Shown piece by piece: positions 6,628 through 54,800 of a DNA stretch of 64,000 bases. Position 1 is the stretch's first letter. The number at the start of each line of letters is the position of its first letter. Below the pieces are notes generated by a model, which saw nothing but the letters and a program-made list of their open reading frames with translations, did not search any database and had not been told where the DNA came from. The stretch comes from a virus. The stretch lies in IMG/VR virus record IMGVR_UViG_3300036861_001052, positions 64,001 to 128,000 of that record. One strand, given 5' to 3'. Both the position numbers and the translations under genes were made by a program.

Positions 6628-6857
6628 GCCGTCGCCGTCTAAACTTCGAGGTCTGGGAGCTGACGTACCCGACGCATGGTCGGATTTGGTCTCTGGCCGC
6701 TCCCGACGCGCGCGCCGCAGCGCGCCTGTGCAAGAAAGTGATCCCCAAGAACGTGCCGTATACTATCGAGCGTGCGCGCCCGCTGCGCGTCGAGTCCGTC
6801 GACCGCGAGCAGGGTATCGTGCGCCTGTCCCTTTCGCAGAAAAGGAAAAGCCTATGA
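6624..6857 (+). CDS. Hypothetical protein
   Basis: GTGA-coupled. Confidence 0.55.
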   Translation: MSRRRLNFEVWELTYPTHGRIWSLAAPDARAAARLCKKVIPKNVPYTIERARPLRVESVDREQGIVRLSLSQKRKSL

Positions 6858-24815: not shown

Positions 24816-27272
24816 GTGAGAGGCAAGCACAAAGCGTACGGTCGAGCGTTTCCAATCCGGGAAGCGGACGTCGGCTCGTACAAGGTAGCGCGTCACCGTC
24901 CCTATCGAGCGAATCCGATGGGCGTGACGACGCTGTCGAGCGTCAACGGCCCGGGCGCGTATTCCGCGCGTGCGGCCTCGAGTGGGCTTTCCCGCGCCGA
25001 GCGTCTGCGGCGCGCGCGCCGGCTCATGGAGAACCGAAGCATGCAAGGACACAAGGTGCACAGGGCCAAGTTCGTACGGCGCATGAAGGCAAACAGCGGT
25101 CGGATGACCTCGAACGCTGCCCGACGCCGCGCGGGCAAACGCCTCGCTGCGTTTCAGGCAGCTCGGCGTCGTGGGCTTTCGAAGGAAGCGGCGATGCGGA
25201 GCGCGTCCCGGAAGTTTCCGAAGAGTCGCCGGCGTGGCTACCGCCGAAACGAGGGACCGGCTCAGGTCGCTTCCCCCGCCTACCGGTCGGGCCACGAGCG
25301 GATCTACGGGAAAAAGGCTCAGCGAAGGCGCGCCGCCGCGGCAAAGCGGAAAGCGCATCGCGCCGAGGTCGCCGCGCGTAAGCGCGCTCGTAAGGCTGCC
25401 GCTCGCGCGAAGAAGCGCGCAGCGATGACGCCGGAAAAGCGCGCTTCGCTCCGAAAGCGCCGCCGCAGGGCGAGCTTTCCTAAGCAGTACAAGAAGGTGC
25501 GGGGCCGAAGGGGCAAGATGCACCGAGTGCGAGTGGCGTACGGACCGTACCGCCGCGCGCGCCTTTCCGATCCGAGGTCAGGCCGAAAGCGCCTCTCCTA
25601 CACCTATCGAGGCAAACGCGGCAAACGCCGCAAGATTCCGCAGTGGGCCGTTGCCGGAGCAGTCAGTGCGCGCGACTACAAGACGTCGAGCGTGTACGGG
25701 CGCGCCCGGGAGCGGATCGCACGGCGTCGTAAACGTGCTGCCGCTCGCGTAGAGCGCAGCGGAGATGCGTTCGTTCCGAACGCGGGAGCAAGAAAAGTGG
25801 CAAGACGAAGAAAGCGAAAAGGGCACAAGCGTTCCCGCCGGGGACGTCGCAAGGTGAAACGGACGCGCGGTCGCGCGCGGCGCCGATCGGCGGGTCACAC
25901 CGTCCGCAGGCGCAAGAGGCGCAAGTCAGCGAGCCGCCGGACAGCCCGGAAGCACCGTGCGAGCCCGCATCGCCGGAAGAAGCGTCGTGCGCACGCGAAG
26001 AGGCGTTCCACGCGCCGCCGGTCCAAGCGCCGGTCGCACCCGCGTCGGATCGGTCGCCGCAAGGTGAGGCGCCTGAGAAAAGGCATCTACCTGGTCGCGA
26101 ACCGCCGTCGCCGTCGCTCGCGCCGCCGCTACGAGGAAAACCGCAGGGTCCGCCGGCATCGTCGTCGGAAGCTCGCGGCAAATCCGCGTCGCAGGCGTCG
26201 CTCGCGGCGTCACGTCGCAAACCGCAGGCGCCGAACGCATCGGCGTCGGAGCTACCGTCGTAACCGGAGCTACCGCCGTAACGGCTTCATGGGCGACTTG
26301 AAGACGCTCGCGAAGATGGGCTTCCTGGTCCTCGGCGGCTTCTTCCTCCACAAGGGGATCACGGGCGGAATCATTCGGGCGCTGACGTCTACGGACGCCT
26401 CGACCGGAGCGATGACGTTCGCCTCGCTGCCGATGATCGGAGCCGACGGCAAACCGACGGTTCTCGCGACTTGGCAGAAGCCGCTCGTCGGAGGCCTGTT
26501 CGGCGGTCTCGGCATCTTCGGGATCTCCAAGCTCCCGATGAAGTCGGACACCCGGAATGCGCTGTCAGCGGGCGTGGTGACGTCGTTCCTTCAGAGCCTC
26601 GTCCACACGATCCTGACTGTCGCAAACCAGCCGGAGGTCCTCTCCTATCTCGAGGGTTACCAGAACAGCGCAGCGTACTCGCTCCGCGGTACCCGAGGGA
26701 AACGGCGCCGTCACCCGATGCGAGGCCTCGGCGTCGCACGGAACGCGACGTCGATCATGCCGCACTACGCACCTGTCGGACAGTTCCAGCAGGCCGCAGC
26801 CGGCATGGGCGAGTACTTCGCGGCTCAGAGCGGCATGGGTGAGTACTTCGCGGGTCCCGGCGTCGAAGGCGTCGGTCACTACGAGAAGGCTGGCCCCTTG
26901 GCGCTTCAGCCCTCGACGAGCCGGATGGGTAACCTTCCGATCGACGACGGCATTCGCCCCGACTCGAACCTCGACCACGTGATGGATCTCGCGGAAAGCG
27001 CGGCCGGTCTCGGCCAAGGTTTCCGTCAGGCCGCCGCGGGAGTCGGGGCGGGCCCGGGTTACCGGCAGGCAGCTGCCGGTATGGGCGAGTACTTCTCGGC
27101 TGCCCCGCAAGACGGCGGCTACAAGGAGTTCTCGGTCCCGACGCAGTCGCAGTGGATCCCCTCGGGGCCCCTCTGGGCCGGCACGATGAGTGCCGACGCT
27201 GCGTACACGGAGAGCGAGCTCCCGGCTGGGATCCTCCAGGGTCCTGGCGGAAACGGAGTGCTCTCGGGCTGA
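24816..27272 (+). CDS. Protamine-like Arg/Lys-rich membrane polyprotein; candidate DNA-condensing core protein
   Basis: About 490 aa of R/K-rich sequence, hydrophobic segments, MRGLG, three GMGEYF repeats. Confidence 0.8.
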   Translation: MRGKHKAYGRAFPIREADVGSYKVARHRPYRANPMGVTTLSSVNGPGAYSARAASSGLSRAERLRRARRLMENRSMQGHKVHRAKFVRRMKANSGRMTSNAARRRAGKRLAAFQAARRRGLSKEAAMRSASRKFPKSRRRGYRRNEGPAQVASPAYRSGHERIYGKKAQRRRAAAAKRKAHRAEVAARKRARKAAARAKKRAAMTPEKRASLRKRRRRASFPKQYKKVRGRRGKMHRVRVAYGPYRRARLSDPRSGRKRLSYTYRGKRGKRRKIPQWAVAGAVSARDYKTSSVYGRARERIARRRKRAAARVERSGDAFVPNAGARKVARRRKRKGHKRSRRGRRKVKRTRGRARRRSAGHTVRRRKRRKSASRRTARKHRASPHRRKKRRAHAKRRSTRRRSKRRSHPRRIGRRKVRRLRKGIYLVANRRRRRSRRRYEENRRVRRHRRRKLAANPRRRRRSRRHVANRRRRTHRRRSYRRNRSYRRNGFMGDLKTLAKMGFLVLGGFFLHKGITGGIIRALTSTDASTGAMTFASLPMIGADGKPTVLATWQKPLVGGLFGGLGIFGISKLPMKSDTRNALSAGVVTSFLQSLVHTILTVANQPEVLSYLEGYQNSAAYSLRGTRGKRRRHPMRGLGVARNATSIMPHYAPVGQFQQAAAGMGEYFAAQSGMGEYFAGPGVEGVGHYEKAGPLALQPSTSRMGNLPIDDGIRPDSNLDHVMDLAESAAGLGQGFRQAAAGVGAGPGYRQAAAGMGEYFSAAPQDGGYKEFSVPTQSQWIPSGPLWAGTMSADAAYTESELPAGILQGPGGNGVLSG

Positions 27273-27447: not shown

Positions 27448-27483
27448 ATGGCAAAACTGACGAACGTCAGAGAGCGTGTGCAT
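27448..27483 (+). CDS. Putative major capsid protein, exon 1
   Basis: AAAGGAAA RBS; MAKLTNVRERVH, ends in T at the predicted 5' splice site. Confidence 0.8.
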
Positions 27484-28260
27484 CACGCGGACGTTCGGTG
27501 AAAGCGAAAGCTGGTGCCCCTCGGCGGTAACGCCGGGGTGATAACTGGGTGAATCAAACCGTTTCGTGATGAGAATGAGAACTTCAGACACAGACATCGC
27601 CTGGCTTGCTGGAATCGTGGACGGCGAGGGCTGCTTCTCCGTGAAGCGTCCCATCGTTCGCAAGACCTACAAGAAGGGGCGAGTGACGAGCTACCAAGTG
27701 TGGCTGGTCGTCTGTAATACGTCCGAGCCGATGGTACGTCGGGTCACGGAGATCTTCGGATCTCTCGGGATCGGGCACCAGCCGGTGAGGCGCGTCTGGA
27801 AGGGAAAGAAGGCAACTCGGTGGCAGTACTGGGTGCACGTCGCGCGAAAGCACGAGCTCTTGCGTCTGACGGAACTCCTCCTGCCTTTCCTCGTGGCCAA
27901 AAAAGACGAGGCCGAGATCGTGCGCTGGTTCCTATCGAGGGCTTGCAGCACGAGGCAATACGTTCCCACTCTTCTCGATCGTACCGCGCTCGAAGCGATG
28001 GCCACGATCAAGCGACACGGCGGGGAAGCCCCTGCTGAGGTGCGAGAGCTCCTTCGCGAGGTAATCCCGAGCCAAGCCGTTTCTGGGATCCGTGCGGCCC
28101 ACGGATTGGAGACGGAAGGCGTAGAGACTAGGTCGGTGACTCCCAAGAATAACCCGACCCACGAGTGCCCGGCGCCCCTCCACTTGGTGGGGTGATGAGA
28201 TAGCCCGACACTCCGGGAAACCGGAGAGCCCGCATAAACAGCGGGCATGACAGAAGCAAG
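27484..28260 (+). ncRNA. Group I self-splicing intron (777 nt)
   Basis: U before 5' site and terminal G; IGS GCTGGTGC (27510-27517) pairs with GCAT (exon 1) and CAGC (exon 2); core-like AATCCCGAGCCAAGC, GTAGAGACTA, GAGATAGCCCGA; GNRA hairpins for P2 and P9. Confidence 0.9.
27566..28195 (+). CDS. Intron-encoded LAGLIDADG homing endonuclease (single motif)
   Basis: IAWLAGIVDGEGCFS...VCNTS...LLPFLVAKK. Confidence 0.92.
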   Translation: MMRMRTSDTDIAWLAGIVDGEGCFSVKRPIVRKTYKKGRVTSYQVWLVVCNTSEPMVRRVTEIFGSLGIGHQPVRRVWKGKKATRWQYWVHVARKHELLRLTELLLPFLVAKKDEAEIVRWFLSRACSTRQYVPTLLDRTALEAMATIKRHGGEAPAEVRELLREVIPSQAVSGIRAAHGLETEGVETRSVTPKNNPTHECPAPLHLVG

Positions 28261-29028
28261 CAGCCGTTTTACGACACGCTCATCCGAACCTCCGGTCTCG
28301 GCGGTTCCATCCCCAAGGTGAATCAGCGGACCTCGCTGTTCACGAACCAGGCTCGCCAGGACGACATCAACGCCCTGACGAACCTGCCGAACGGTTCGAC
28401 GCTCCCGTCCGACCAGAGCCACGTGACGCTCGCGCTTCGCGTGTTCATCTGGTTCCGCAATCCGCAGATCCGCGCAAGCGGCTTTGCGAACGGTGCGATC
28501 AAGAACAACGGCGACTTCTCCCAAGCGGGAGCGGCGGCGTTCTTCTCGCAAGGCGGAGTCGACCCGAACGGCGCGACCGCGGGCCCCGGCGCCTTCAACT
28601 ACCCGGGCTCGATCGAGGACGTCTACCGCCTGTACTGGCAGTCGGAAGAGCAGCTTCACTGGAGCTACGGCACCGGTGACAAGTTCTCGATCACGAACAT
28701 GCCGACGAAGTACTTCCCGGACGGCGGTGGCCTCTGGGGTGACCTCGGTGGCTCTTCGGATCTCATCCACTTCAACAACGGCACGCCGGACCACACGGCA
28801 ATTCTCCGGCTCGCGCGCGCGATCCTTCTGCCTCCCCGGCAGAACATCAAGTGCGCCGCCGAGATCGTGCCCTTGCCCGACGGTGGAAACGCCCAGATCG
28901 CTGGATCGACCGTGACCGGCAACGGCCGGAACATGCTGTCGCTCCAGGACAACCTGAACGCGACCGACGGGATCAACAAGGTGATTCAGTTCACCTTCGA
29001 CGGTCTCTTCGCCCGCGACGTTCAGTAG
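28261..29028 (+). CDS. Putative major capsid protein, exon 2 (candidate single jelly-roll; 267 aa spliced)
   Basis: In-frame join gives RERVH/QPFYDTLIR; beta-rich; structured leader and 3' hairpin. Capsid role is inference. Confidence 0.65.
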   Translation, partial: QPFYDTLIRTSGLGGSIPKVNQRTSLFTNQARQDDINALTNLPNGSTLPSDQSHVTLALRVFIWFRNPQIRASGFANGAIKNNGDFSQAGAAAFFSQGGVDPNGATAGPGAFNYPGSIEDVYRLYWQSEEQLHWSYGTGDKFSITNMPTKYFPDGGGLWGDLGGSSDLIHFNNGTPDHTAILRLARAILLPPRQNIKCAAEIVPLPDGGNAQIAGSTVTGNGRNMLSLQDNLNATDGINKVIQFTFDGLFARDVQ

Positions 29029-29075
29029 CTTCGAACGCAGGTTGATCGCGCGCCTGAGCCAAGCGCGGTACGGCA

Positions 29076-29110
29076 CGGACGGCGGTTTCCCTCAAAAGAG
29101 CCGCCGTCCG
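29076..29110 (+). terminator. GC hairpin after putative capsid gene (stabiliser or attenuator)
   Basis: CGGACGGCGG / CCGCCGTCCG perfect 10-bp stem; no U tract. Confidence 0.5.
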
Positions 29111-29139
29111 GTACTCCTCACGGAGGCACGAAAAAAGAC

Positions 29140-30132
29140 ATGGCAAGTTGGGAACAGGTCATTCGAGACCTGCAGAACACGGCAGGCTTTGCCGCCGCAA
29201 AGGCGAAGGAAGCGATCGACAAGGCAGGCCGAAACGAGAGCGCCCTCGCGCTCGTCCGGCAAGAGCTCGAACGCGAGCAGCGCTCCATGCAAGCGCTCGC
29301 CGACGCGCTCGAAAAGGTCCAGGGCCGCGGCGCGGGCTACGGTAACGGTAACGTCGGCGTCGACGAGCGCGTGCGCTACATCGAGTCGATCCCGGGTCGC
29401 AGGATCCCGTTCGACTTCGTCGTGACGATTCCTATTTCTTCGAACTCGGTCTCGCAGGTCCAGGGCACGAAGACCGTGAGCCAGGACGGGCCGTTCGTGG
29501 CGGTTGCGCGCTACGCGGCGTTTCAGTCCGCGTTCCAGTTTCAACGGGTAGACCCCGTCACGCAGGAGAAGGCGGTCTTTCAAGGACGCTCCTTCGGCCG
29601 TTTTCGTCCGATGCACTCCATGTGGGACCTGAACGATGCCTCGACCGGCGTCTTTCAGCCGACGACCGGCATCGCTCAGCCGGGCACGGGCGCGCCGATC
29701 GTGGCGGCTCCCTCGAACATGTCGTCCTTCCGCACGATGGAAGGCGACTTCATCATCCAGATGCTGAATCAAGGCGCTGGCTACCCTCGCGACAATCAGG
29801 ACGGCGGCATTCCGAGCGCCTGGTACTCCGAGAGCATCAACAGCCCCTTCCAGCTCGGAGCCTTGGACTTCTTCGAGCGCGGCGAGACGATCCAGTGGAA
29901 GGTCACGCCGACGCACGTCAATAACCCGCCGGCAGGTAACCTTTCGGGTTACGCTGCGGGTGGCGTGTTCCCGTTCCTCGCGAGCCAGTACGACGTGCAC
30001 GAGGGCATCAACGACCAGCTCGATCCCGAGGCAACGAGCGATCCCATCACGAGGCTCCCCGACGGGATCTTGTGGATAGGGATGCACGGGATCAAGATCG
30101 TGCAGCCCCCCGGGCCGGTGAGGCTCACCTAA
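29140..30132 (+). CDS. N-terminal coiled coil plus beta-sandwich; candidate second capsid protein
   Basis: GGAGG RBS; PFDFVVTIPI, QDGPFVAV, DFIIQM, ETIQWKVT, LWIGMHGIKI strands. Confidence 0.6.
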   Translation: MASWEQVIRDLQNTAGFAAAKAKEAIDKAGRNESALALVRQELEREQRSMQALADALEKVQGRGAGYGNGNVGVDERVRYIESIPGRRIPFDFVVTIPISSNSVSQVQGTKTVSQDGPFVAVARYAAFQSAFQFQRVDPVTQEKAVFQGRSFGRFRPMHSMWDLNDASTGVFQPTTGIAQPGTGAPIVAAPSNMSSFRTMEGDFIIQMLNQGAGYPRDNQDGGIPSAWYSESINSPFQLGALDFFERGETIQWKVTPTHVNNPPAGNLSGYAAGGVFPFLASQYDVHEGINDQLDPEATSDPITRLPDGILWIGMHGIKIVQPPGPVRLT

Positions 30133-30140
30133 GGAGAATT

Positions 30141-31046
30141 TTGACCCTCCGATCACATTTGACGCCGCGGCAGGTCAAGGGGCTCGGCCTCGGAGCCCCG
30201 TCGCCGCCGGCGGAGCCCGTACGCGTGCTCGATCCGTGGCGAGGCGATCCGCCTCCTCCTCAGCCCTACGAGGGCGAGGGGATCAGCCACGGCTGCGACG
30301 CTTCCCGGGTCCAGCTCGCCGGAGGGGCGCTGAACACCCTCCTCGTCCATCCCGAGGTGACGCCCTTCGAGCAGCTCTACCGGCGCCTGCCCGAGGAGGG
30401 GATGTTTCTCGACTCGGTCGGCCCGGAGAATCCGTTCACGTTCGAGCTCGGGGCGTTCCGCGTGCCGGACACGTTCACGCTGCTCTTGTTCGATTTGAGG
30501 CCAGACATCTATCGCTTCAGCGGCGTGGATCCGGGAGACACGATCCCGGTCGAGGCGCGGCGCTTCAGCTCGGTTCTCGGCTTTCAGATCACGGTCGACC
30601 AGCGCCAGCCCGCCAATCTCCTCTACCAGCTCGATCCGGCGCCGATTCAGACGTTTCCCGAGGCCTTCACGAATCCGATCGGCGCTCCCGGCGAGCTCCC
30701 GCCCGCCATCGCGGCGGCAATCGGTTTCCAGAACGGATCGCGCTTCAACCTCTCTCAGGCGACGAGCGTCGCGACGGCTTCGGGCGCCGGAGACCAGCTC
30801 CAGCCACAGAGGCCGACCCGGTACGGGCCCTTGTCCGTGCCGTTTACGATGTACATCCGGCCCGGGCAGACGTTTCAAGTCCGCTGCGTGATCTTCAATC
30901 CGGTGCCGAGCCCGATTGCGTTCATCGAGTACGACATCGCTGGCATGCTCATGCCGGACACGTGGGTGACGACGATGACCGAGTGCATGAAGCCGCTCTC
31001 GAACGCTTCGCACGGTCCAGGCTCTCTCGGGGGAGGTCCACGGTGA
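30141..31046 (+). CDS. Beta-sandwich protein; candidate minor capsid or penton
   Basis: AAGGAG then TTG start; VKGLGLG; FELGAFRVP, MYIRPGQTFQVRC, IEYDIAG. Confidence 0.55.
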   Translation: MTLRSHLTPRQVKGLGLGAPSPPAEPVRVLDPWRGDPPPPQPYEGEGISHGCDASRVQLAGGALNTLLVHPEVTPFEQLYRRLPEEGMFLDSVGPENPFTFELGAFRVPDTFTLLLFDLRPDIYRFSGVDPGDTIPVEARRFSSVLGFQITVDQRQPANLLYQLDPAPIQTFPEAFTNPIGAPGELPPAIAAAIGFQNGSRFNLSQATSVATASGAGDQLQPQRPTRYGPLSVPFTMYIRPGQTFQVRCVIFNPVPSPIAFIEYDIAGMLMPDTWVTTMTECMKPLSNASHGPGSLGGGPR

Positions 31047-31048: not shown

Positions 31049-31173
31049 TCGGTGAAGGAGGCCAGCCGGCCGCCGTCGCGCTTCCAGCGGGTATGGACGA
31101 ACGCACCCCTATCGGACATGGGGGCTGTCGAGTCTTACTCGGGAAACGGCGGACGGCTGGCCTCCTTCACCGA
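31049..31173. repeat. 28-bp inverted repeat enclosing three small hairpins; candidate structured RNA
   Basis: 31049-31076 and 31146-31173 are reverse complements with 1 mismatch. Confidence 0.85.
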
Positions 31174-31191
31174 GCTCGAGGCGTCATGGTG

Positions 31192-31953
31192 ATGCAGAGC
31201 TACGTCGAAGGCGGCGCCTCCCAGATGGGGACGGCGTGGGACGAGATCGGGATCTTGCCTGCTCCCCCCGGAACGTCGCTCGGCCAGATGGACGCGATGA
31301 GTCTCTTCTCGGAGGTCTCGGACGCGCTCCGCCTGCGGCCCATCGGTGTCGTGACGCCCTGGGCAGCACGCGTCGGTGATCTCGAGTGGGAGGACATTCC
31401 CCATCCCGACACGAACGTGATGCTCTGGGAGCTCACGGACGCGGCCATCAATGCCGTGCCGGAGGTGACGTTCGGGAGTCCCTTGCCGTTCGTGGGGATC
31501 GTGACGTCGCGGCCGATGAGCGTCGCAGAGACGCGAAAGATGTGGGAGGGGACAGCCTACGCTCCGTACGAGACGCAAGCCGTCTACCGGCAGGACGACG
31601 CGAAGGATCCGCCGACTGCGCTCTTCTTGCACTGGGGCGAGCGCATCGACATCGCGAAGCTTCCGAAGGAGGTCTTGCTCCTCGGCCCCCGCGCTTCGGC
31701 CGCCGCGGGAAGCCTCGTCTTCGCGGCTCAGATCCCAGCGCAGAATTCGACCACGCGCGCAGCTCCGTCGAGCTCGTTTGCTTCGGTCCTCGCGCGGCAG
31801 GCGCCGCTTCCGCCGGAGCCGCCGCCGAATCCCACGCCGGGCCCGATCCCTCTCGGCCCTGTCAAAGAGGACAAGATGAATCTCGGCGTGCCGATCGCCG
31901 TAGGGCTAGGGGCAGCGGCTCTCGGCTTCTTGCTCTGGAAGAGGAAGAGGTAA
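31192..31953 (+). CDS. Tail-anchored protein
   Basis: Pro linker, TM + WKRKR. Confidence 0.75.
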   Translation: MQSYVEGGASQMGTAWDEIGILPAPPGTSLGQMDAMSLFSEVSDALRLRPIGVVTPWAARVGDLEWEDIPHPDTNVMLWELTDAAINAVPEVTFGSPLPFVGIVTSRPMSVAETRKMWEGTAYAPYETQAVYRQDDAKDPPTALFLHWGERIDIAKLPKEVLLLGPRASAAAGSLVFAAQIPAQNSTTRAAPSSSFASVLARQAPLPPEPPPNPTPGPIPLGPVKEDKMNLGVPIAVGLGAAALGFLLWKRKR

Positions 31954-31958
31954 GGCGC

Positions 31959-32333
31959 ATGTATACGGGCGTTGGACAAGACTCTGGCATGGTGTTTCTT
32001 CCTGGGAGCATCACTCCGCGCCCGACGGCGCCGGCCCCTTCCCAGCCGCCGCGCCTGATCCTTAAGCTCAAGCCGGACGGCGGCACGTGCGACTTCGCCG
32101 AGCAGTGCGCCGGTCACATTTGCCGGAACGGCCTCTGCCGCTCGGGCGTGATACTCAAGCAGCCATCGCGTCCCCCGGCCGAGTCGACACCAGCGCCCGT
32201 CCCGTCGCTGGTCGTCAGCGAAGGCGAGCCCACTACCGAGCCCGGAGCTCCGAAGTCATCGAAGCTCCCGCTCTACATTGCGGCGGGCGGCGTTGCCGTG
32301 CTCGGCATCGCCTGGCTCGTCATGAGAAAGTAG
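31959..32333 (+). CDS. Cys-knot-like tail-anchored protein
   Basis: MYTGVGQ; C-x5-C-x4-C-x4-C; TM + RK. Confidence 0.75.
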   Translation: MYTGVGQDSGMVFLPGSITPRPTAPAPSQPPRLILKLKPDGGTCDFAEQCAGHICRNGLCRSGVILKQPSRPPAESTPAPVPSLVVSEGEPTTEPGAPKSSKLPLYIAAGGVAVLGIAWLVMRK

Positions 32334-32344
32334 GAGATAGAGAG

Positions 32345-33172
32345 ATGTTCGTAGGACAAGGCATGGGCCGGCGCGCACAAGGCGGTCTCGGTCTCTATCA
32401 GCCGACGCCTACCGGCATCAAAGTGACGGCGCTTCCGACGTGCGCATTTCCCGCGGAGAAGGCGGAAGCAGCGAGCAAGTGTCAGACGATGAGTCTTCAC
32501 GGGCTCGGTCAGACGATGACGCGGGTCACGGGGCCGATGACGGGCAGGCTCGCCGGCTACTCGCCCTGCGACATCGTGAACTACCCCGTCTGCCCCGAGC
32601 CGAAGTGCATCGACGAGCAGACGGTCACCACGATCCTGAAGTGCGCCAACGGCCTACCGGTAGAGGGCGTCGACTGTAACACGCCGAGCACCGCTCTCTA
32701 TCTCTACTCGCTGTCGCTTCTGCCCTATTGCGGCAAGCCGAGCTTTTTGGCGCCGCCGCCCTCGTGTCTCTCGAAAGACCAGCAAGCCCTCATCGGGTAT
32801 TGCGACGCGCATCCCGACTTCAAGGGCCCGAACAAGTCGTGGAACAACATCTGCTGGGTCAACACGCACGACCCCGTGTACTGGGCGAAGCTTCGAGCGG
32901 TGAGGCCGTGCCCGGTGGCCGCGCCGGCCGCTCCACCTCCGGTGAGGCCCCCGCCGGTCTTGAAGCCTCCGCCCGCGGCGCCGCCGCCGGTTCGTCCTCC
33001 TCCATCGGCTCCGCCGCCCGTCACGGCGCCGCCGTCGGACATGGTCCCGCCGGAAGACATTCCGGACGAGCCGGAGCATCGAGAGTCCGCCATGATGGGG
33101 CTCTGGGGGATCCTCGCGCTCGTGGCCGTGGGAGGCGGGGGATACTACCTCTACAGGCGCTACAAGAGATGA
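32345..33172 (+). CDS. Cys-rich tail-anchored protein
   Basis: AGGAG RBS; GQGMG, GGLG, LHGLG; Pro stalk; TM + RRYKR. Confidence 0.8.
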   Translation: MFVGQGMGRRAQGGLGLYQPTPTGIKVTALPTCAFPAEKAEAASKCQTMSLHGLGQTMTRVTGPMTGRLAGYSPCDIVNYPVCPEPKCIDEQTVTTILKCANGLPVEGVDCNTPSTALYLYSLSLLPYCGKPSFLAPPPSCLSKDQQALIGYCDAHPDFKGPNKSWNNICWVNTHDPVYWAKLRAVRPCPVAAPAAPPPVRPPPVLKPPPAAPPPVRPPPSAPPPVTAPPSDMVPPEDIPDEPEHRESAMMGLWGILALVAVGGGGYYLYRRYKR

Positions 33173-33366
33173 CCATGAACCTCGTCGCCATCGCCGGAGT
33201 GCCCTTCGGGGAGAGCGTGACGCTGCCCCCGGGCTCGGGCCCCTCACAGCCCTACGTGGCGACGACAGAAGACAAGAAGGCGATGTGGATGGCGCTAGCG
33301 GCGCTCGGCGTCGGCGCAGTCGTGGGCTACGTCTTTCTCGGTGACATGGTGCGGAGGGGCGCGTGA
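33169..33366 (+). CDS. Small tail-anchored protein
   Basis: ATGA-coupled; C-terminal TM. Confidence 0.65.
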   Translation: MTMNLVAIAGVPFGESVTLPPGSGPSQPYVATTEDKKAMWMALAALGVGAVVGYVFLGDMVRRGA

Positions 33367-33587
33367 GAGATCCCGTCCGCACAGCCGCATCGGCTGCCGA
33401 GGTCCTCGGGCCCGCGATGGACGATGTGGGAGGCCCGGTCGGGCTCGTCGGGCGGGCCATGGGGCTCGGAGCCGACGAGATCGACGCCGGCATTCCCGGC
33501 TGGGGCTGGTTTGGCGTCGGCGTCGTAGCCGGCGGGATAGCCATGTACTTTTTGCGTGACCGGCTCCGCGCTTTCGCCGCGGACTGA
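33363..33587 (+). CDS. Small tail-anchored protein
   Basis: AMGLGADE then TM. Confidence 0.7.
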   Translation: MRDPVRTAASAAEVLGPAMDDVGGPVGLVGRAMGLGADEIDAGIPGWGWFGVGVVAGGIAMYFLRDRLRAFAAD

Positions 33588-33621
33588 GCCACGGTAGGAT
33601 TGACTCAGAAGGACCATCCAC

Positions 33622-34584
33622 ATGAACTCACTCGGCGCCTACTTCGGAAGCACGCGAATCGTTCAAGGGGCAGGTGGGCTCGGCGACGACTACCTCCAGG
33701 CCTATGCCGACGGCGTCGTCGGCGGGAGCGCCCCGAATGCGGAGATGCCGGGTCCGATCACGGCGTACCGCGACGGAAGCCTCGGCCGGATGTCGCACCA
33801 GTACGGCGGAGGCGACTCGGGCGAGCTAGCCGCTTGGGCTGACGGCGTCGTTGGTGGGAACGCCCCCGACGCGGTCCCGGGCGAGCTCTTCGCCTATCAC
33901 GACGGAAGCCTCGGTGCCGAATCGAACCCCGCGACGATCGGCGACGACATCTCGTCCTATCACGACGGCGTCCTCGGCGACCGCAAGAACTTCGTTGTCC
34001 CTGGCTTCGGACCGCTCCAGTCCTTTCACGACGGAAGCCTCGGCGCGTACGCGGCTGCGATCGGAGCGGCGGCGGAAAACGTCCTCGATCTCGGCGACGC
34101 CAATGTCTTGAAGGAACTCAAGGTGGCGATGAGCTTCATCGCTCCCGAGCAGACGCTCACGATGGACGGCCAGAAGGTGTACACGCCCGACTGGTACACG
34201 AACGGGATCTGGGATCCTCAGGCCTCGCTTCTCTGGCAGTACATCGTCAGTAAGACGAGCGCCTTCAAGGGCAAGAGCGTCTCGGTCGACATCGGCGCGC
34301 AGACCTACCCGAACGCGACCGGCATCGGCTTCATGGTGGCGGCTCTAGCCGCGCCGCAGTCCGGGACCTACGGCCCCGACTACGTGAAGAAGAACCTCCC
34401 CGCGCTCTACGCCTGGTTTACGGCCGGCGGAGGCACAGTGCTCGCTCCGTACCTGTCCCTCACGGACAAGACGAAGGGCGCGCGCGGCACGCCGAGCTCG
34501 GAGATGAAGATGAGCACCGTCGCGCTCTACGGCCTCGGAGCCGTGGCGCTCTTCGGCGTCGCACTCGTCTTTTGGAAGAAGTGA
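33622..34584 (+). CDS. Tail-anchored protein with six [YWF]xDG[SV][LV]G repeats
   Basis: Repeats in 33697-34045; TM + WKK. Confidence 0.8.
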   Translation: MNSLGAYFGSTRIVQGAGGLGDDYLQAYADGVVGGSAPNAEMPGPITAYRDGSLGRMSHQYGGGDSGELAAWADGVVGGNAPDAVPGELFAYHDGSLGAESNPATIGDDISSYHDGVLGDRKNFVVPGFGPLQSFHDGSLGAYAAAIGAAAENVLDLGDANVLKELKVAMSFIAPEQTLTMDGQKVYTPDWYTNGIWDPQASLLWQYIVSKTSAFKGKSVSVDIGAQTYPNATGIGFMVAALAAPQSGTYGPDYVKKNLPALYAWFTAGGGTVLAPYLSLTDKTKGARGTPSSEMKMSTVALYGLGAVALFGVALVFWKK

Positions 34585-34587
34585 GCC

Positions 34588-34824
34588 ATGTGGTTAGCAT
34601 TCACAGGAGCCGACAGAATCTGGCCTGCCTGCAATAGCCAGAGGTGCGGATTTGTAAAGGTTCCTGGCACAAACACGAGCCAGCCGGATCTCAATTGTGA
34701 TCCGGATGCGTGGCAGCACTGCGTCGACTCGTTGGCTCACGAACAACAGACCCAGCAGCGCATGGTCATAGGCGCCGGACTCGTAGCAGTGGTCGGCATG
34801 GCGTGGCTATTTTTCAGAAAGTGA
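34588..34824 (+). CDS. Small Cys-containing tail-anchored protein
   Basis: Four Cys; TM + RK; more AT-rich. Confidence 0.7.
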   Translation: MWLAFTGADRIWPACNSQRCGFVKVPGTNTSQPDLNCDPDAWQHCVDSLAHEQQTQQRMVIGAGLVAVVGMAWLFFRK

Positions 34825-34834
34825 GTTCGTCATC

Positions 34835-35350
34835 ATGATGAGCGGACTAGGAGCAATGCGGCAAGAGAGCCCGGACGTGGCGCGGCTCAGGCACGCGCTC
34901 ACGGCATGGGCGGCGAGCCCGAACGACCGCGCGGCGATCAACGGACTCTACGGCGCCGCGTGGATCTGGACGGCGAAAGTCAGGCCGCGGTTTACGGCGC
35001 TCGACAATGCGCTCGCTTCCGCTCTCGCCCAGTGGGGTAAGAGCCCGAGCGACGTCTCGAGCCAGCGCCTGGTGAGCGCGGCGGCCGCGCGGTGGATGGC
35101 GGGCGTGCACGCGCTCGGTGAATACTTTTCGGGCACTGGCGAATACTTCGCGGCTCAGGGCATGGGAGAGTACTTCTCTGGAACGGGCGAGTACTTCTCG
35201 GGTGCGGACGGGCTCGGAGCGGACATCGCCATGGTCTGCTCCGAAGAGTGCATGAAGTACGTCAAGGCCGACAAGAAGCGCCTCATGCTCATGACGGGAT
35301 CCATCGCGCTCGGCCTCGGGCTCTTCGCGGGCATGGTCGTCTTTCGGTGA
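34835..35350 (+). CDS. Tail-anchored protein with four GEYF repeats
   Basis: MMSGLGA; LGEYFSGTGEYFAAQGMGEYFSGTGEYFSG; DGLGAD; TM. Confidence 0.8.
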   Translation: MMSGLGAMRQESPDVARLRHALTAWAASPNDRAAINGLYGAAWIWTAKVRPRFTALDNALASALAQWGKSPSDVSSQRLVSAAAARWMAGVHALGEYFSGTGEYFAAQGMGEYFSGTGEYFSGADGLGADIAMVCSEECMKYVKADKKRLMLMTGSIALGLGLFAGMVVFR

Positions 35351-35371
35351 CGGAGAAAGGGCCTCTCCGTT

Positions 35372-35992
35372 TTGAAAGACATCTTCGCAACTTTCGGTCG
35401 TAAGGTTTCCCGGATCCCCTGGGGGGCCGTTGCGGGCGTTGTCGTCGAGCAGCTCCATGCGCAGGGCGGCGTCGCGGGGCAGGTTCTCGCGCAGCTCCAG
35501 GAGTGGGCGGGTCATCTCGCCGCGAACGCCGTCCGTGAGTGGCCCGGAACGATCGCGAGTCACGCTCCCTGCGCCTGCCCGAACGTAGCTTCCGGCACAC
35601 CGAAGAAGTGCCACGCCTCGGCCGTCGTCGTCTGCGACATCTGCAATCGCAAATGCTGCCTCGCGCACGCTCGGATCGATTACCTAGCCGGCGCCATCTG
35701 CGAGATCTGCATCGGCGAAGCCAAGGCGCGGGCACGGGCGGCGGGACCAAAAGCTCCGGGTCAGGCGGCTCCGAAAAAGGACGTCGACCGGGCGTTCAGG
35801 ATCTTGGATCTCGGTCGCACGGCGACCTGGGAGGAGATCAAGAAGCGCCACCGCGAGCTCGTCTTCAAGCACAACGCCGACCGGCCGCAGACGGACAAGA
35901 TGCGAGCCCAGAACACGGAGCGCCTGAAGAAGGTGAACTGGGCGCTCGAGGTCCTACGGAAGTTTCATGAGGACAAGAAGGAGGCCGCGTAG
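35372..35992 (+). CDS. Zn-finger plus J-like domain protein (HPD replaced)
   Basis: CDIC...CLAH...CEIC; AFRILDL...ATWEEIKKRHRELVFKHNADR...LKKVNWA. Confidence 0.75.
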   Translation: MKDIFATFGRKVSRIPWGAVAGVVVEQLHAQGGVAGQVLAQLQEWAGHLAANAVREWPGTIASHAPCACPNVASGTPKKCHASAVVVCDICNRKCCLAHARIDYLAGAICEICIGEAKARARAAGPKAPGQAAPKKDVDRAFRILDLGRTATWEEIKKRHRELVFKHNADRPQTDKMRAQNTERLKKVNWALEVLRKFHEDKKEAA

Positions 35993-36189
35993 TGGCCCTC
36001 TACAAGGTGAAGCTCCGCGTCGACTACGTCCTCGACATCCTCATCGAGAACGCCCCGAGCGCCGATGAGGCGAAGCGCAGAGCGGCATTCGAGGCCACGA
36101 AGGCCGTCGAGCGCGCGTTTCCTGAGAGCACGAGCATGATCGGGCAGGCTCAGCCCCTCTCCGCCGTCTGCGTGAACAGCCTGGAGTAG
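35992..36189 (+). CDS. Hypothetical protein
   Basis: TAGTG overlap, GGAGG RBS. Confidence 0.6.
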   Translation: MALYKVKLRVDYVLDILIENAPSADEAKRRAAFEATKAVERAFPESTSMIGQAQPLSAVCVNSLE

Positions 36190-36200
36190 AGCCCGATGAA

Positions 36201-36383
36201 CTACTTCACCCCGAACATGCGCTTGACCTCTTCGTGCGAGGTTCTGGTCTCCGGGCCCTCTCTGCGGCCTTGGGCGATCTGCTGCCAGAGCGCTTCGTTC
36301 GTCGCCCAGTACCAGTCTTCGTCGTCCATGTCCGCGACTGCGGTAAAAAGGTTTTGCGCGTCGCTGGGCTCGATTGGTTTCAT
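36201..36383 (-). CDS. Small antitoxin-like protein (tentative)
   Basis: Lone minus-strand ORF filling a gap; ends SHEEVKRMFGVK. Confidence 0.45.
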   Translation of the reverse strand: MKPIEPSDAQNLFTAVADMDDEDWYWATNEALWQQIAQGRREGPETRTSHEEVKRMFGVK

Positions 36384-36413
36384 GGGGTGCCCTGCTGTTT
36401 TAGCAGGTGCAGA

Positions 36414-36800
36414 ATGACGTACCACCCCGTAGGTGCCGGCCCTGGGCCCGTCGAAAAGTACAAGGTCGACGCGCCGTGGCCCTGGGGCGACAACACGGAG
36501 ATCGCGCTTCCGATCCAGGAGCTCGTGAGCGACGCCTGGGCTGCGGCTCGTCCCCGCATCGACGAGCTCGAGGCGAAGCTCATCGACGACATGGAAAACG
36601 AGATGTCTCTCTACGGGCCACGGCTCGTGAAAGACATCATGGACAACGTCGTCACTCCCGAAATGAACAAGGAGCTCGAGGTCGCGATGGCCGAGCTCGA
36701 CGTCATGAAAACGGACGTCACGAGGACTCTCTTTGCCGTGGGCGCTTCTCTCGTCATCGCTGTCGGGCTCGGCGCCTGGTGGCTGAAGAAGGGTAAGTGA
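36414..36800 (+). CDS. Tail-anchored protein, paralogue of 37087
   Basis: VGAGPG.V..Y.VD.P.PWG..TE..LP.Q.LV.DA; TM + KKGK. Confidence 0.8.
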   Translation: MTYHPVGAGPGPVEKYKVDAPWPWGDNTEIALPIQELVSDAWAAARPRIDELEAKLIDDMENEMSLYGPRLVKDIMDNVVTPEMNKELEVAMAELDVMKTDVTRTLFAVGASLVIAVGLGAWWLKKGK

Positions 36801-37084
36801 TGGGCAAGCGCGGCCCCGTCTTCTTTCAGATCCCCGTCGAGCTCAGGTTCGTGGTGACGGTGCAGCTCCCGGCCTTGCCGGAGTCGGGGCAGTACATGTC
36901 TCGGCCGTACGGTCTTTCGCCGGCCGAGGGGAAGGAACTGCGGGACGAGGCAGAGGCGATTGCGTGGGAGTTTTTGGAGCGGAAGATCGATGTGGGCGGC
37001 GGAGAAGCCATTGCGGCTCACGTGGAGGAATGGGAGCTCACTCGAGGCGGTCGCTCTGGCGTAAAAAGTCGAAGGGGCAGATAA
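36800..37084 (+). CDS. Hypothetical protein
   Basis: TGATG overlap. Confidence 0.6.
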   Translation: MGKRGPVFFQIPVELRFVVTVQLPALPESGQYMSRPYGLSPAEGKELRDEAEAIAWEFLERKIDVGGGEAIAAHVEEWELTRGGRSGVKSRRGR

Positions 37085-37086
37085 CG

Positions 37087-37320
37087 ATGTACCGAGCCGT
37101 CGGCGCTGGACCCGGAGACGTGACGACCTACCGCGTGGATCTCCCGCTTCCGTGGGGCAGGGACACGGAGGTGACTCTGCCCATGCAGGCGCTCGTCGAC
37201 GACGCGTACGCCGCCATGGAGCCTAACCTCACGGCCGCCATCAACAAGGGAGCGATCGTCATCGCTGCGTCCGTGGCCCTCGCCGTAGGCCTCGCAGCGA
37301 TGTGGATCAAGAAAGGATGA
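37087..37320 (+). CDS. Tail-anchored protein, shorter paralogue of 36414
   Basis: Same N-terminal motif; TM + KKG. Confidence 0.8.
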   Translation: MYRAVGAGPGDVTTYRVDLPLPWGRDTEVTLPMQALVDDAYAAMEPNLTAAINKGAIVIAASVALAVGLAAMWIKKG

Positions 37321-37321
37321 C

Positions 37322-37561
37322 GTGGCTTCTCTCTGGCGCTTCGTCGTCGACATCTACGAGCCCGGGACGAGCACGGCGTATCCGGTGCTCCGCCACGTCT
37401 TTTTTGGCCTCGACGAAGAGGAAGCCTACGGCACCTTCGAGGCGCACATGACGACGGACGAGTTTTTGCGCGGGTGCGTGGAAAAGGGCCGCTGGAACGG
37501 CCTCGACTGTATTGCCAAGGCGCAGTGGCTTGCTCCGGGAGAGCAAATCCCCGAAGATTAG
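37322..37561 (+). CDS. Hypothetical protein
   Basis: Fills gap; protein-like composition. Confidence 0.6.
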   Translation: MASLWRFVVDIYEPGTSTAYPVLRHVFFGLDEEEAYGTFEAHMTTDEFLRGCVEKGRWNGLDCIAKAQWLAPGEQIPED

Positions 37562-37570
37562 GAGACCCCG

Positions 37571-37879
37571 ATGTCCTACTGGAACGTTCCGGACCAAGAC
37601 TACCATGAGCTCCCCGTGGCGACGCCGTTCTGGCAGTCGGCGCCGGTGCCGGGCTGGGGCAAAAACCCGCTTCGCGCCGGTCCCCGGCGGGTCGGCATCG
37701 GCGGCGGGATCTGGGAAGAGGATGCGTTTCTCCCTCACTACATGTCGATCGGCGAAGATCCGGCGGCGAGCTACCGCGAGACGAGCTACGGCGTCGTGGC
37801 GCTGTCTGGCGCGGGCGGGATCATGCTCGGGATCTTGTTCGGCTACGCCTGGTGGGGGATGAAGAAACGGGCGGCGTAG
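37571..37879 (+). CDS. Tail-anchored protein
   Basis: AGGAG RBS; RVGIGG; TM + KKR. Confidence 0.75.
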   Translation: MSYWNVPDQDYHELPVATPFWQSAPVPGWGKNPLRAGPRRVGIGGGIWEEDAFLPHYMSIGEDPAASYRETSYGVVALSGAGGIMLGILFGYAWWGMKKRAA

Positions 37880-38169
37880 TGAACGGCTACGGATACGTCT
37901 CGTATCCGACGAGCACGGGACAAGTCGAGTCTCGGGTCGCCGTCGTCACGTGCCCCGAGTGCTCCTTTCTCAAGAACGGCGACTGCGTCGTCTGCATCGA
38001 CGGCGAGGATCATCCAGCCTGCAATGGATGCTCGGACGGTCAGATCGTCTGGTACCGGCGTCCGCTCTTCGTCTCGGTAGCAACGGCAATCGTCGTGTCG
38101 ATCATCGCGGGCATTACCGTGCATCAGATCGAGAAGCATTCCTCGGTGCTTCGAAGGCTAAGGTCATGA
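37879..38169 (+). CDS. Cys-rich tail-anchored protein
   Basis: CPEC, CVVC, CNGC; TM. Confidence 0.7.
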
Positions 38170-51369: not shown

Positions 51370-51852
51370 ATGGCAGACGTACAAAAGGTCGTTGCGGCTC
51401 GCATTCAGGCGACGTCGCTTTCCGCCGTCCAGCAACCGAGCCTCCAGCCCCAGGGCCCGCGCTTCGGTAACATCATCGCCGAGGAGTCTAGCGAGCTCCC
51501 CCCGAACGAGATCCGGACCGTCCTCTGGGACAATGGCCTGGTGGACGACGTGGACGCCGACAGCGTCGCGGCGCTCAATCTCGATGTCATCGAAAATCCA
51601 GCGGCCGACGTCATTTCGACCTTCGAGGGACAGGTCGTCCTTCGTATTGCGCCAGAGGGCGCCGTGCCGGGCGACGCGGCAGGCGGCACGAGCCGGGAGT
51701 TTTCCGGGCTCGTCCTCGCCATCTACAAGCGAACTCCGATCGAAGCGGAGGCGGGAAGCGGCGACGACTTCCTCCTCGTGCTCAATTCGTCGGGCACTTA
51801 CTTCGAGGACCTCGCCGGATCTTTCACGGTGCTCCGAAACCAGACGCCCTAA
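51370..51852 (+). CDS. Beta-rich hypothetical protein, paralogue of 50911
   Basis: Same motif order. Confidence 0.75.
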   Translation: MADVQKVVAARIQATSLSAVQQPSLQPQGPRFGNIIAEESSELPPNEIRTVLWDNGLVDDVDADSVAALNLDVIENPAADVISTFEGQVVLRIAPEGAVPGDAAGGTSREFSGLVLAIYKRTPIEAEAGSGDDFLLVLNSSGTYFEDLAGSFTVLRNQTP

Positions 51853-54800
51853 AACGGCGCTGTCATCGCCGTCATCATGCGGAGCGGGCTCGGCATGACC
51901 TCGCTCGCGCTCCGGATGGGGCGGAGCCCTGCCTCGAAGGCGTTCCGGGTGAGGAGGCGCCTCGGTGGGGCGTTCGGCAGGAGCTCTTCGTCCTCGTCCT
52001 CGCCGCCGACGGAGAAGTAGGTCTGGGGCGCTTTGGGCGCCTCGAGCACGGCTCTTCGTGGGCCCCCCTCCCGCGAGACGACCACGGTCGGCCGGCGCCG
52101 CATGACCTGAATATTGCCGCTCTCGACGGCAGATCGAGCGATGGCCTCGGTGACGTCCGGGCTCGGGAGGGCAATTTCTGCCCGGACGGAATCCTGGACG
52201 AGCCCTGCCTCGAGCACTTCGGCCGCTCCTGCCTCGTCGAGGCCCTCCTCGACGGCGATCCGGCGGAGGTCGTCCTCGCGGAGATCTTCGCTACTCCGGA
52301 GGATCCTGCGGGAGGCCTGCCGGAAGCCCGCCAGGTAGCGGAGGCGCGCCTTTTGTCCCGAGAGGCCGAGCTCGGCGGCGAGCCGCTTCTCGACTACCTC
52401 GGGGCAGGGAACGATCCAGGCGATGTAGGAGAGCATGACCGAGTAGAGAAGGCTGTACTCACTCGAGCGCTCGCCGCCGCGCAGGACGGGGATCCCATGG
52501 CGCCGGACGTGCTCCCACATGCCGCGCGCCGCCCTCCGCATCACGCACTCCGAGTCCCGCCCGTCGTAGCGGCGCCCGAACTCCTCTCGGAACGCCGCCG
52601 TGTGCACGATGGTCCGCTTCTTCGTGTCGATCCGGAAGGAGTCCTTGTCGAAGAGCGTGCTCCGGAGAATGTTGGCGTCGACGAGCTCGACACTAGCCGA
52701 TGGAAACGCCGCACGCAGGAGCGCCTCGATGCGGGCGTCGAGGGGCCTCGGGAGAGACGGCCGCTCCACCTTCGGATCGCCGACGCCGAGTGCGGCGAGC
52801 CTTTCCGTGATGAGCTTGAGGGTCTCGCGCTCCCGCTCGGCCTCGTCTTTTTCTTTGGCGCGCGACGCCTTCCGGAGCGACTCGACGCTCTCGTAGTAGC
52901 CCTTGAGGAGCTCGCGGGCTTCGCTGACTTGGATCTTCATCGCCTCCTCGGCGAAGCCGACTTCGGCGGAGCGCTCTTTCTCGCGCGCCACCGACAGATC
53001 CTGCCCCGTGATGGATCCGATCCATTTCAGAAACCAGGAAAACTCCTCCGGACTCTTGTCGTAGATGTCGCGCACGGGATCATCTGCGAGAAACCAATCC
53101 GGGAGCTCTTCGGCCGGGCTCACGCCGACGAGAGAGGCCTCGGCAAACTTCTCCATGAAGGCCGTCCACTCTTCGTCGTCCCGCTCGCTCCCACGCGGCC
53201 GCTCGATGTGCTCGAACGCCCGCACCGTCGTCGTGTAGCGCTCGGCGTTCTGCTCGAGCCAGCGGGCGAGGTAGTCGTCGTCGTGGGCGCGGATGTCTTT
53301 ACCGACCCGCGCTTCCGCATCGAACGGCACGAACCGAAACTTCCCCTTCGTGCCGCGGGATAGGCCCCGCTGGATCTCCTGGAACGCTCCCCACCACCGG
53401 TCGAGCCCGAAGGCTTTCGTCGGCGAGGTCTTCATCCACTCGGCGCGAAGAGCCTCGACTTTGGCAAACAGCGTGGGCGCTTTGATCTCCGAATAGAGCT
53501 GCTCGCCCGCGAAGACCGGCAAGGGGGGCACCGTGACCGTCTTCGTCTTCCCCTCCTTGTCCCGTACGGTGACCGTGACTTCTCCGTGCTTGGAGGCAGA
53601 GCCGCGCGCAAACCACGGAAGGAGCGAGAGCTCGCCGAGGCCGTAGCTCAAGGGCCACGGGTCGTAGTGCTCGCCGAGCCAGTGGTCTGCCTGCACCATG
53701 TCCTTGCCACGGCGCTCGTAGAGCGCGACCGTGCCAGGGCTCTTTCCCTGGCGGGGCTCGACGCGGGTGAAGTGGATCTTTTCTCGCGCTTCGTCGCGGT
53801 GCGAGCCCGGTGGGGCGCCGATGTCCGCGTACGCGTAGAAGGGGGAGCCGCGGGAGATGTCCTTCTTCGGCGGCGCGGGCGGCTCCTCGTCCTCGGCGAT
53901 CGCGACGAGGCCTCCCTCTGTCGCGGGCTCGGGCCCCATCTTCGGCGACTCGGCGACGAGAGTCGGATCGGCCTCTTCCCTGGCTTGGACGCCGTAGGTC
54001 TCGATGACTCGCGCGGGGGGAGGCACGGCCGGCGGCGTCCCGGCAGCCGCCCCGCCGGCAATGTACTCGAGGATCTCGTTTTGGCCGGACAGCACATCGA
54101 GCTCGCGTTCGTCTTCGATGTAGCCCTCGGTCACGACCACGCTCGAGTGACCGAGGATGCTCTGGATCTCCCGGATGGGTTTCCCCCGCTTCGACATCGC
54201 CGTCGCGGCGAAGTGCCGGAAGGCGTGGCTGTAGACGAGGCGGCTCTCCTCTGCCGAGAGGCCCGCTTTCTCGGCGATGCGCTTTAGAAGCGCCCGGAGA
54301 CACCACCTCGACATGGGCCGGCTGTGAGCGGGCCGCACGTTGGGTTTCATCTCCTGATACTGCGAGGGGGAGTTCGCTCCCCAGAAAGCGACCGGAGGAA
54401 AGAGCGGCGCGTCGGTCTCTTCGGAGAGCGCCCGGTAGCGCCAGGCTGCGCCCCCGCGCGGGACGTAGAGCTGCCCCTTCGGATCCTCGGACTGAGCGCC
54501 GGGGGGCGCCGCGCGCGCCGCGAGGGCCGACTGAAAGTCGTAGAGCGATCGGAGCGCGTACGGCGGGTAGGGAAGCCTGTGATGGACGCCGCCCTTCCGG
54601 ACGAGCTCGACCATGACGGGAGCTGTGCGCGGCTCGAGCCAGCCGGGCGTCCTCTCGAGCTCGGTCGCCTTCGGCTTCTCGCGAGTGAGCCGGCGGGCCT
54701 CGGTGGCTCGGACTCCCGTGAGGACCAGAAACCAGAAGATGGCGGCGTCGCGCTTTTCGACGAGCGAAGGCCCGCCGGTCGCGGCGAGGAGGCGCTCGAC

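Follow-up and report, generated by a model that had tools for sequence, protein, structure and literature searches.

What do three adjoining genes of a large, uncultured soil virus encode, and what kind of particle would their products build? The genes lie at positions 27448-31046 of a 64,000-nucleotide stretch of DNA (hereafter the window), which corresponds to bases 64001-128000 of a 138,414-bp IMG/VR virus record. A sequence-only reading of the window had proposed three tandem single jelly-roll proteins, forming a paralogous capsid set of the type used by P23-77 and SH1, with a hairpin after the first gene that fitted a higher expression of that gene. Our findings lead to a different model. 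On balance, genes 1-3 probably encode the outer shell of large, tailless bacterial viruses that contain a membrane and belong to an undescribed family, with an architecture nearer to that of SPV1 (Sulfolobus polyhedral virus 1) than to that of P23-77/SH1. We also found that gene 1 is split by an intervening sequence with the anatomy of a group I intron, absent from most relatives and from one DNA allele of the same locus.

Gene Structure and Conservation

The interval is filled exactly by three same-strand genes, with the signature in GC content at third codon positions that is typical of coding DNA. Gene 1 is discontinuous: the frame opened by the ATG at 27448 stops after 17 codons (MAKLTNVRERVHHADVR*), and the conserved protein picks up again at 28261. 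Because uninterrupted homologues fix the junction, gene 1 is read as exon 1, a 777-nt intervening sequence and exon 2; in fact, 9 of 10 fetched homologues carry an unbroken MAKLTNVRER[VI]HQPF[YF]D. Exon 1 (27448..27483, plus strand) holds 12 codons, MAKLTNVRERVH, and ends in CAU, where the homologues continue ...VH/QPF. Exon 2 (28261..29028, plus strand; 255 aa) encodes a predicted single jelly-roll-class sandwich and is the best conserved part of the three genes. Gene 2 (29140..30132, plus strand) encodes 330 aa, and gene 3 (30141..31046, plus strand) 301 aa, its most likely start being the TTG at 30141, with AAGGAG upstream; the database call (P0241) places an alternative start at 30159. From its sequence, the gene 3 product appears to comprise a Pro-rich N-terminal arm carrying RQ-V-K-G-L-G, followed by a strand-like C-terminal part. 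A hydrophobic-x-G-[LIVM]-G tag is shared by 49 of the 121 members of the gene 3 family, its median position being 13.

Relatives at E<=1e-3 number 613 for gene 1, 583 for gene 2 and 193 for gene 3 (the latter in 182 clusters at 50% identity); all of them lack a Pfam domain and an informative name. An 818-aa protein followed by genes 1, 2 and 3 is the order kept in 21 loci, wherever the contig reaches: the 818-aa protein is the upstream neighbour of gene 1 in 21/21, genes 2 and 3, close-coupled in most loci, are present in 20/21 (the contig of L008 ends early), and the next gene downstream of gene 3 is found in 16/21. The tandem arrangement noticed by the sequence-only reading is therefore real, a same-strand block that fills the interval and is conserved in all 20 relatives long enough to hold it. 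Gene 1 is the most conserved of the three, with 56-92% identity across the 21 loci, followed by genes 2 and 3. In five divergent relatives identities are 58-69% for gene 1, 44-49% for gene 2 and 34-46% for gene 3, and three other large unannotated proteins gave only partial matches there (26-62%).

A few loci carry additional sequence in or near the block. L023 has two tandem gene 1 paralogues (4578-5804 and 5965-6738), the first of which (409 aa) bears a Cys-rich loop insert of ~140 residues, reminiscent of capsid protein pairs with one tower-bearing member. In L017 (7903-8628) and L018 (7800-9233), genes 2 and 3 are separated by additional genes whose repeats are peptidoglycan-binding-like, and inserts of 1.6 kb and 3.5 kb separate genes 1 and 2 in L024 and L027, respectively. 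Rfam searches of these five loci gave zero matches, the inserts being extra genes or a paralogue.

Predicted Folds of the Gene Products

The two proteins folded, those of genes 1 and 2, are both predicted by AlphaFold2 to be beta-rich, jelly-roll-class sandwiches. To this extent the proposal of single jelly-roll proteins stands, the splitting of gene 1 by an intron having gone unmentioned in it. The gene 1 model has a predicted local distance difference test score (pLDDT) of 81.9. The gene 2 model consists of a helix at residues 4-60, a low-confidence, disordered Gly-rich linker and a sandwich at residues 87-321. For both models the best viral matches are capsid jelly rolls, and in both the top viral match is SPV1 VP4; capsid-type matches further include SH1, HHIV-2, HCIV-1, PRD1 P3 and P23-77 VP16-VP17. 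The structural comparison with P23-77 VP16/VP17 and SH1 that had been envisaged does place these proteins among the matches, yet SPV1 VP4 scores higher. For the gene 2 sandwich, Z scores are 7.7 for PHM, 7.5 for SPV1 VP4 (138 of 178 residues aligned), 7.5 for PBCV-1 (8h2i_bC), 7.0 for both a grouper iridovirus capsid and EhV-201, 6.8 for SH1, 6.6 for HHIV-2, 6.3 for satellite panicum mosaic virus and 6.2 for HCIV-1. Since all Z scores lie below 8, in a commonly seen range, we describe genes 1 and 2 as of jelly-roll class and capsid-like, and assign them to no family. Against BFVD, the gene 2 model lists SPV1 VP4 at E 6.9e-3.

Sequence-based searches were less informative. Neither Pfam nor PHROGs offered a family for the products of genes 1, 2 and 3, for the 818-aa protein or for five other large proteins; PDB sequence searches of the three gene products returned merely coiled-coil noise for the gene 2 helix; and in the ESM Atlas genes 2 and 3 fell only in unnamed "Viruses" clusters without structure. 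A complex prediction of gene 1 with residues 76-330 of gene 2 scored 0.00, gave no verdict and weighs neither way.

Relationship among the Three Families and the Spacer Hairpin

Are the three proteins paralogues, as had been supposed? Profile-profile comparison finds no relation between the three families: hhalign probabilities were 0.2-0.6% in all settings and for every pair, including a greedy run and a diverse gene 3 alignment (A5) built from 50%-identity representatives. The greedy alignment of genes 2 and 3 contains several collinear short motifs, which are not significant (P 0.23). The shared ending, [ILF]..[PR].[QE][NT][IF], survives in part: the pattern is exact in gene 1 (LLPPRQNI) and gene 2 (FFERGETI), and gene 3 (YIRPGQTF) departs from it by one mismatch, a Y at position 1. 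It matches 3 of the 203 open reading frames (ORFs) of the genome, two of them being genes 1 and 2; as the pattern was derived from the same sequences, this is no statistical test and no proof by itself. Conservation of its residues is complete or almost so in families 1 and 2 and weaker in family 3, and in both models the motif precedes the second-last strand. The sequences FTFDG, IGMHG and YDIAG lie 12, 18 and 38 residues from the respective C-termini.

The hairpin after gene 1, in contrast to the proposed paralogy, is confirmed. The spacer between genes 1 and 2 contains a GC-rich hairpin with a perfect 13-bp stem and no U tract (29076..29110, plus strand), whose best local free energy is -32.2 kcal/mol. 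Of 120 random 137-nt windows drawn from this genome, 3 reach this value and 21 reach -30 kcal/mol or below. The spacer measures 97-197 nt in 18 of 20 loci, and 17 of these 18 hold a strong hairpin (-30 kcal/mol or below) formed by unrelated sequences, or 16 of 17 when the identical L021 and L022 are counted once; in L010 a weaker stem is followed by a U run. A role as terminator or as stabiliser, with more gene 1 transcript as the outcome, would fit.

Genome Context and Packaging Genes

The virus record has direct terminal repeats of 127 nt and a completeness rating of 100%. Its relatives are separate contigs of 38-182 kb from soil, freshwater and groundwater, and three of five searched relatives are rated complete or have terminal repeats. 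A bulk scan of 99 ORFs yielded 41 Pfam and 129 PHROG families, of which 25 of each were listed; those listed include DnaB, AAA ATPases, Cpn10, SLT, amidase_2 with PG_binding_1, macro, glycosyl- and methyltransferases and a DDE transposase. The peptidoglycan hydrolases (SLT, amidase_2, PG_binding_1) in a 138-kb genome indicate a bacterial host. Only four contigs with the family were found in metagenome-assembled genomes (MAGs), labelled Pseudomonadota, Pirellulales (twice) and Pseudomonadales, and binning is no proof of host. A tblastn search of GenBank phages with P0001 gave zero matches, and literature searches, with supplements outside their scope, found no published description of the family.

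Among the families listed for the 99 ORFs there is no terminase, portal, head or tail-tube family, and the two proteins behind the "tail fiber" PHROG matches contain collagen repeats. Six-frame searches for Terminase_6N, Phage_capsid (the HK97 type) and Phage_portal were likewise negative in all five family genomes, namely the present one and four relatives, with the positive controls matched. A search of the same five genomes for FtsK_SpoIIIE (PF01580) recovered only a sub-threshold P-loop of 14.8 bits inside DnaB; 12 of 14 controls were found, and a very divergent ATPase could escape such a search. Walker A scans pointed to no further ATPase candidate near the three-gene module.

Directly upstream of gene 1 (window 24816-27272, plus strand) lies the 818-aa protein, whose N-terminal half is extremely rich in Arg and Lys; beyond it come a hydrophobic segment and repeated G-M-G-E-Y-F motifs. 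It may be a core protein that condenses DNA, or a polyprotein. On the other side, adjoining gene 3, a run of ORFs (window 31093-38169, plus strand) ends time and again in a C-terminal hydrophobic helix followed by Lys/Arg (…LWKRKR, …YRRYKR, …VFWKK, …LFFRK), which suggests many tail-anchored membrane proteins beside the three genes. Elsewhere in the window, at 51849-55688 on the minus strand, a 1279-aa protein contains a tyrosine-recombinase (Phage_integrase) domain at residues 455-526, and gene orientation switches there. The viral genome also encodes a DDE transposase with a SWIM finger (G000:C1:22748-24160; L003:4748-6160) and, at other places, Cpn10, two DnaJ-domain proteins, a macro domain and a Cdc48-like AAA ATPase.

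Weighing the Interpretations

If the block is an outer-shell module, the following picture would emerge. Viruses of this family, with genomes of ~110-180 kb, would infect soil and freshwater bacteria. The group I intron would excise itself and the two joined exons would yield the gene 1 protein, a single jelly roll acting as the major shell subunit. Gene 2, a jelly roll behind a 60-residue helix, and gene 3, beta-rich and equipped with a Pro-rich arm and a Gly-Leu-Gly tag, would serve as a further shell subunit, as vertex (penton) and membrane-linking proteins, or as both. The build would be SPV1-like: jelly-roll proteins would form a shell around a lipid layer in which many small proteins are anchored, and the basic, Arg-rich 818-aa product would condense the DNA, with no motor to pump it in. 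Part of the transcripts might be stopped or stabilised by the hairpin behind gene 1, leaving the product of that gene in excess. A bolder form of this model, in which a realm-level bacterial lineage combines a 110-180-kb genome, protamine-like condensation inside a membrane and a motor-less, single jelly-roll shell, with genes 1, 2 and 3 as hexamer, linker and penton proteins, is one that we entertain only tentatively. Several points weigh against assigning a shell role to the block. The models cover genes 1 and 2, that is 2 of ~200 proteins, and that of gene 2 is of moderate confidence (pLDDT 68.5, predicted template modelling score 0.54). Foldseek found no match at E<=0.001 in PDB (gene 1) or BFVD (genes 1 and 2), and PDB chain searches revealed no sequence similarity to any solved capsid protein. 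A different capsid protein, for example a double jelly-roll, may be hidden among the many unannotated ORFs; a search with the corresponding family, PF04451, matched none of its controls either and is hence uninformative.

The original idea, that genes 1 and 2 form vertical single jelly-roll heteromeric pseudo-hexamers as in P23-77 (VP16/VP17) or SH1/HHIV-2 (VP4/VP7), with gene 3 as the penton and all three as paralogues, draws on the tandem layout and on the short motif common to the region before the last two strands. We consider it distinctly unlikely, given that SPV1 VP4 outscores the P23-77, SH1 and HHIV-2 proteins for both models, that hhalign relates none of the three families, and that the FtsK/HerA packaging ATPase to be expected of that lineage was not found in five genomes beyond the sub-threshold DnaB P-loop. 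Genomes of the P23-77/SH1/HHIV-2 type measure ~17-31 kb. Could the products instead be virion proteins outside the shell, such as vertex, spike, fibre or cement proteins with TNF-like or TasA-like sandwiches, the true major capsid protein being one of the unannotated ORFs? The small share of the ~200 proteins that has been folded leaves room for this account; receptor-binding parts, however, are usually the most variable, and gene 1 is the most conserved protein tested, while among the families listed for the other scanned proteins there is no capsid family, which makes it unlikely. That the block is not structural at all, and encodes secreted or cell-surface beta-sandwich proteins of a large mobile element, is very improbable. 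The fold class does occur in many non-viral proteins, the genome does carry the 1279-aa integrase-domain protein and a DDE transposase, and such contigs do occur in MAG bins; yet the record is rated complete and has terminal repeats, the relatives are separate contigs of 95-182 kb, the block sits within a run of small C-terminally anchored proteins beside an Arg-rich protein, and the N-termini of both models are devoid of a signal peptide-like helix. Overall, an SPV1-like outer-shell module is the interpretation that we favour.

A Group I Intron in Gene 1

What is the sequence that splits gene 1? Its features indicate that it is a group I intron (27484..28260, plus strand; 777 nt), presumably self-splicing, with a putative homing-endonuclease gene of its own. 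The ends match the group I rule, with a U before the intron and a G at its end, and excision restores the conserved protein. In P1 the sequence GCAU/CA, the stroke marking the splice site, pairs with the internal guide sequence UGGUGC at 27512-27517, with a U.G pair at the splice site; in P10 the first bases of exon 2, CAGC, pair with GCUG at 27509-27512, immediately 5' of the guide. Folding and alignment to the introns of three relatives (L074, L042, L071) locate a P2 hairpin with a GUAA loop (27517-27538, plus strand) and the 5' strand of P3 with J3/4 (27545-27554, plus strand), and cmscan and the alignment to relatives locate a ribozyme core, P4-P9, with a further 3' hairpin at 28229-28245 (28020..28245 in all, plus strand). 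The Rfam model RF00028 matches the window weakly on 27970-28227 (18.4 bits, E 0.054, for a gathering score of 50), the ORF insert splitting P3 from P4. An intein was considered and rejected: the intervening frame contains stops, and the ends are U...G with P1 and P10.

Both halves of the intron align to the ORF-less introns of L074, L042 and L071, one as P2, the P3 strand and J3/4, the other as P4-P9 and the terminal hairpin; the ORF-bearing insert is thus placed between J3/4 and P4, and its ends would pair with each other within the window intron. The ORF (27566..28195, plus strand), in a frame different from that of exon 1, encodes 209 aa with one LAGIVDGEG motif, and its last 58 codons double as the ribozyme core P4-P8. 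The protein appears to be LAGLIDADG-like, at modest significance: Pfam matches fall below their cut-offs (PF14528, E 0.0021, 18.7 bits for a cut-off of 22.5; PF00961, E 0.0092, 17.3 bits for a cut-off of 23.1), PHROG 5046 matches at E 2e-14, and PDB searches gave I-PanMI (E 1.2e-4), I-AniI and I-CvuI, the last of these aligned over residues 10-144. A pattern scan of IMG/VR found no relatives of the endonuclease, relatives being present in metagenome loci.

The intron is also absent from one DNA allele. A single contig of soil run X3 (depth 3.6, with a short side of 26 nt and a 2-nt ambiguity) joins 27483 to 28261, skipping exactly 777 bases, and runs X4 and X5 hold identical pieces of the window intron; among the runs listed for this stretch, none is of RNA.

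Introns in Related Loci

To place the intron among relatives we considered 101 related loci (4 genomic, 17 from IMG/VR, 80 metagenomic). Gene 1 is uninterrupted in 90, cut by contig ends in 3 and broken within the first 19 codons in 8; the N-terminus RERVHQPF.D is near-invariant across the 90. In seven of the eight broken loci, that is 7 of 98 evaluable relatives, the interruption is of the intron type and lies within codons 12-15. L044 is interrupted at the window's own site, by 309 nt without an ORF, and the other six (L042, L071, L077, L084, L063, L074) 7 nt downstream, inside the Phe-15 codon, again with a U before the intron and a G at its end. Introns without an ORF measure 263-309 nt, and those with a LAGLIDADG ORF 764-777 nt. 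P1 can be drawn in 7/7 introns of gene 1 and P10 in 6/7. Among the eight interrupted relatives scanned, RF00028 matched L074 (80.6 bits), L042 (60.2 bits) and L077 (23.3 bits), with no match at E<=1 in L071, L084, L044, L063 and L030. L077 and L084 have intron-encoded endonucleases with 66.5% and 61.2% identity, respectively, to that of the window; this homology, together with guides that fit their own exons, points to one intron-endonuclease family at two sites 7 nt apart.

In the eighth broken locus, L030 (2800-3060), as in protein P0012, an unrelated N-terminus replaces the first 18 residues of the gene 1 product, and exon 1 was not found within 3 kb upstream; this locus could represent a divergent start or an unrecognised interruption. 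Gene 1 emerges as an intron hot spot; insertions crowd into its first 15 codons, as would suit a gene that is conserved and essential. The present analysis adds the intron in the window's gene 1, the second insertion site, the ORF-less relatives that pass the Rfam threshold and the intron-less DNA allele.

Comparison with Known Systems

Known tailless, membrane-containing bacterial viruses combine, to our knowledge, a small genome with a packaging ATPase that can be recognised. The present family is widespread and has genomes about tenfold larger, jelly-roll shell candidates and no packaging enzyme that our searches could detect. If the reading holds, it would widen the range of bacterial capsid architectures and link bacterial viruses to a so far isolated archaeal family; were the lineage truly motor-less, the archaeal portogloboviruses would have in it a bacterial counterpart seven times as large. 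The intron, on its side, singles out gene 1 as a conserved target for homing elements and offers a testable ribozyme, of which ~58 endonuclease codons would also form the catalytic core.

Among known shells that of SPV1 (Portogloboviridae) seems the closest in architecture. According to the ICTV profile of the family (PMC8459092), two single jelly-roll proteins build it, VP4 as hexamers and VP10 as pentamers; inside are a lipid layer, with subcapsomer proteins, and a core of nucleoprotein, and the functions listed include no packaging ATPase. In the present genome, likewise, searches recovered no packaging enzyme, the gene upstream of the block encodes an Arg-rich protein, and many small proteins appear to be anchored. 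The differences are nonetheless substantial. SPV1 infects a hyperthermophilic archaeon and has a circular genome of 20 kb, whereas the present virus has 138 kb, terminal repeats and peptidoglycan hydrolases; gene 2 has an extra helix of 60 residues; three conserved proteins are found here against two; and profile searches with four alignments (A1, A2, A3, A5) recovered no chain of the SPV1 structure (PDB 6oj0) at E<=10. The P23-77/SH1 type seems to fit less well, its structural scores being lower for the gene 1 model. An FtsK/HerA-type packaging ATPase is given as a feature of the Helvetiavirae lineage (P23-77, SH1, HHIV-2; Sphaerolipoviridae and relatives) in an excerpt of PMC8328091, and it is this enzyme that was not detected in the five genomes, at odds with the proposed P23-77/SH1-type capsid set. 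Given the lack of a sequence relation and the differences in genome size and host, we claim membership neither in Portogloboviridae nor in the P23-77/SH1 group.

The intron, in turn, recalls those of phage structural genes. Group I introns with homing endonucleases occur in capsid and tail genes of Cluster J mycobacteriophages, as stated in an excerpt of PMC3706429. The likeness extends to an intron in a conserved, capsid-type gene, an endonuclease ORF inside it and intron-less alleles in the population. In contrast, the ORF lies here between J3/4 and P4, with its last 58 codons forming core P4-P8, and relatives carry the same intron-endonuclease family 7 nt downstream, with a guide changed to match.

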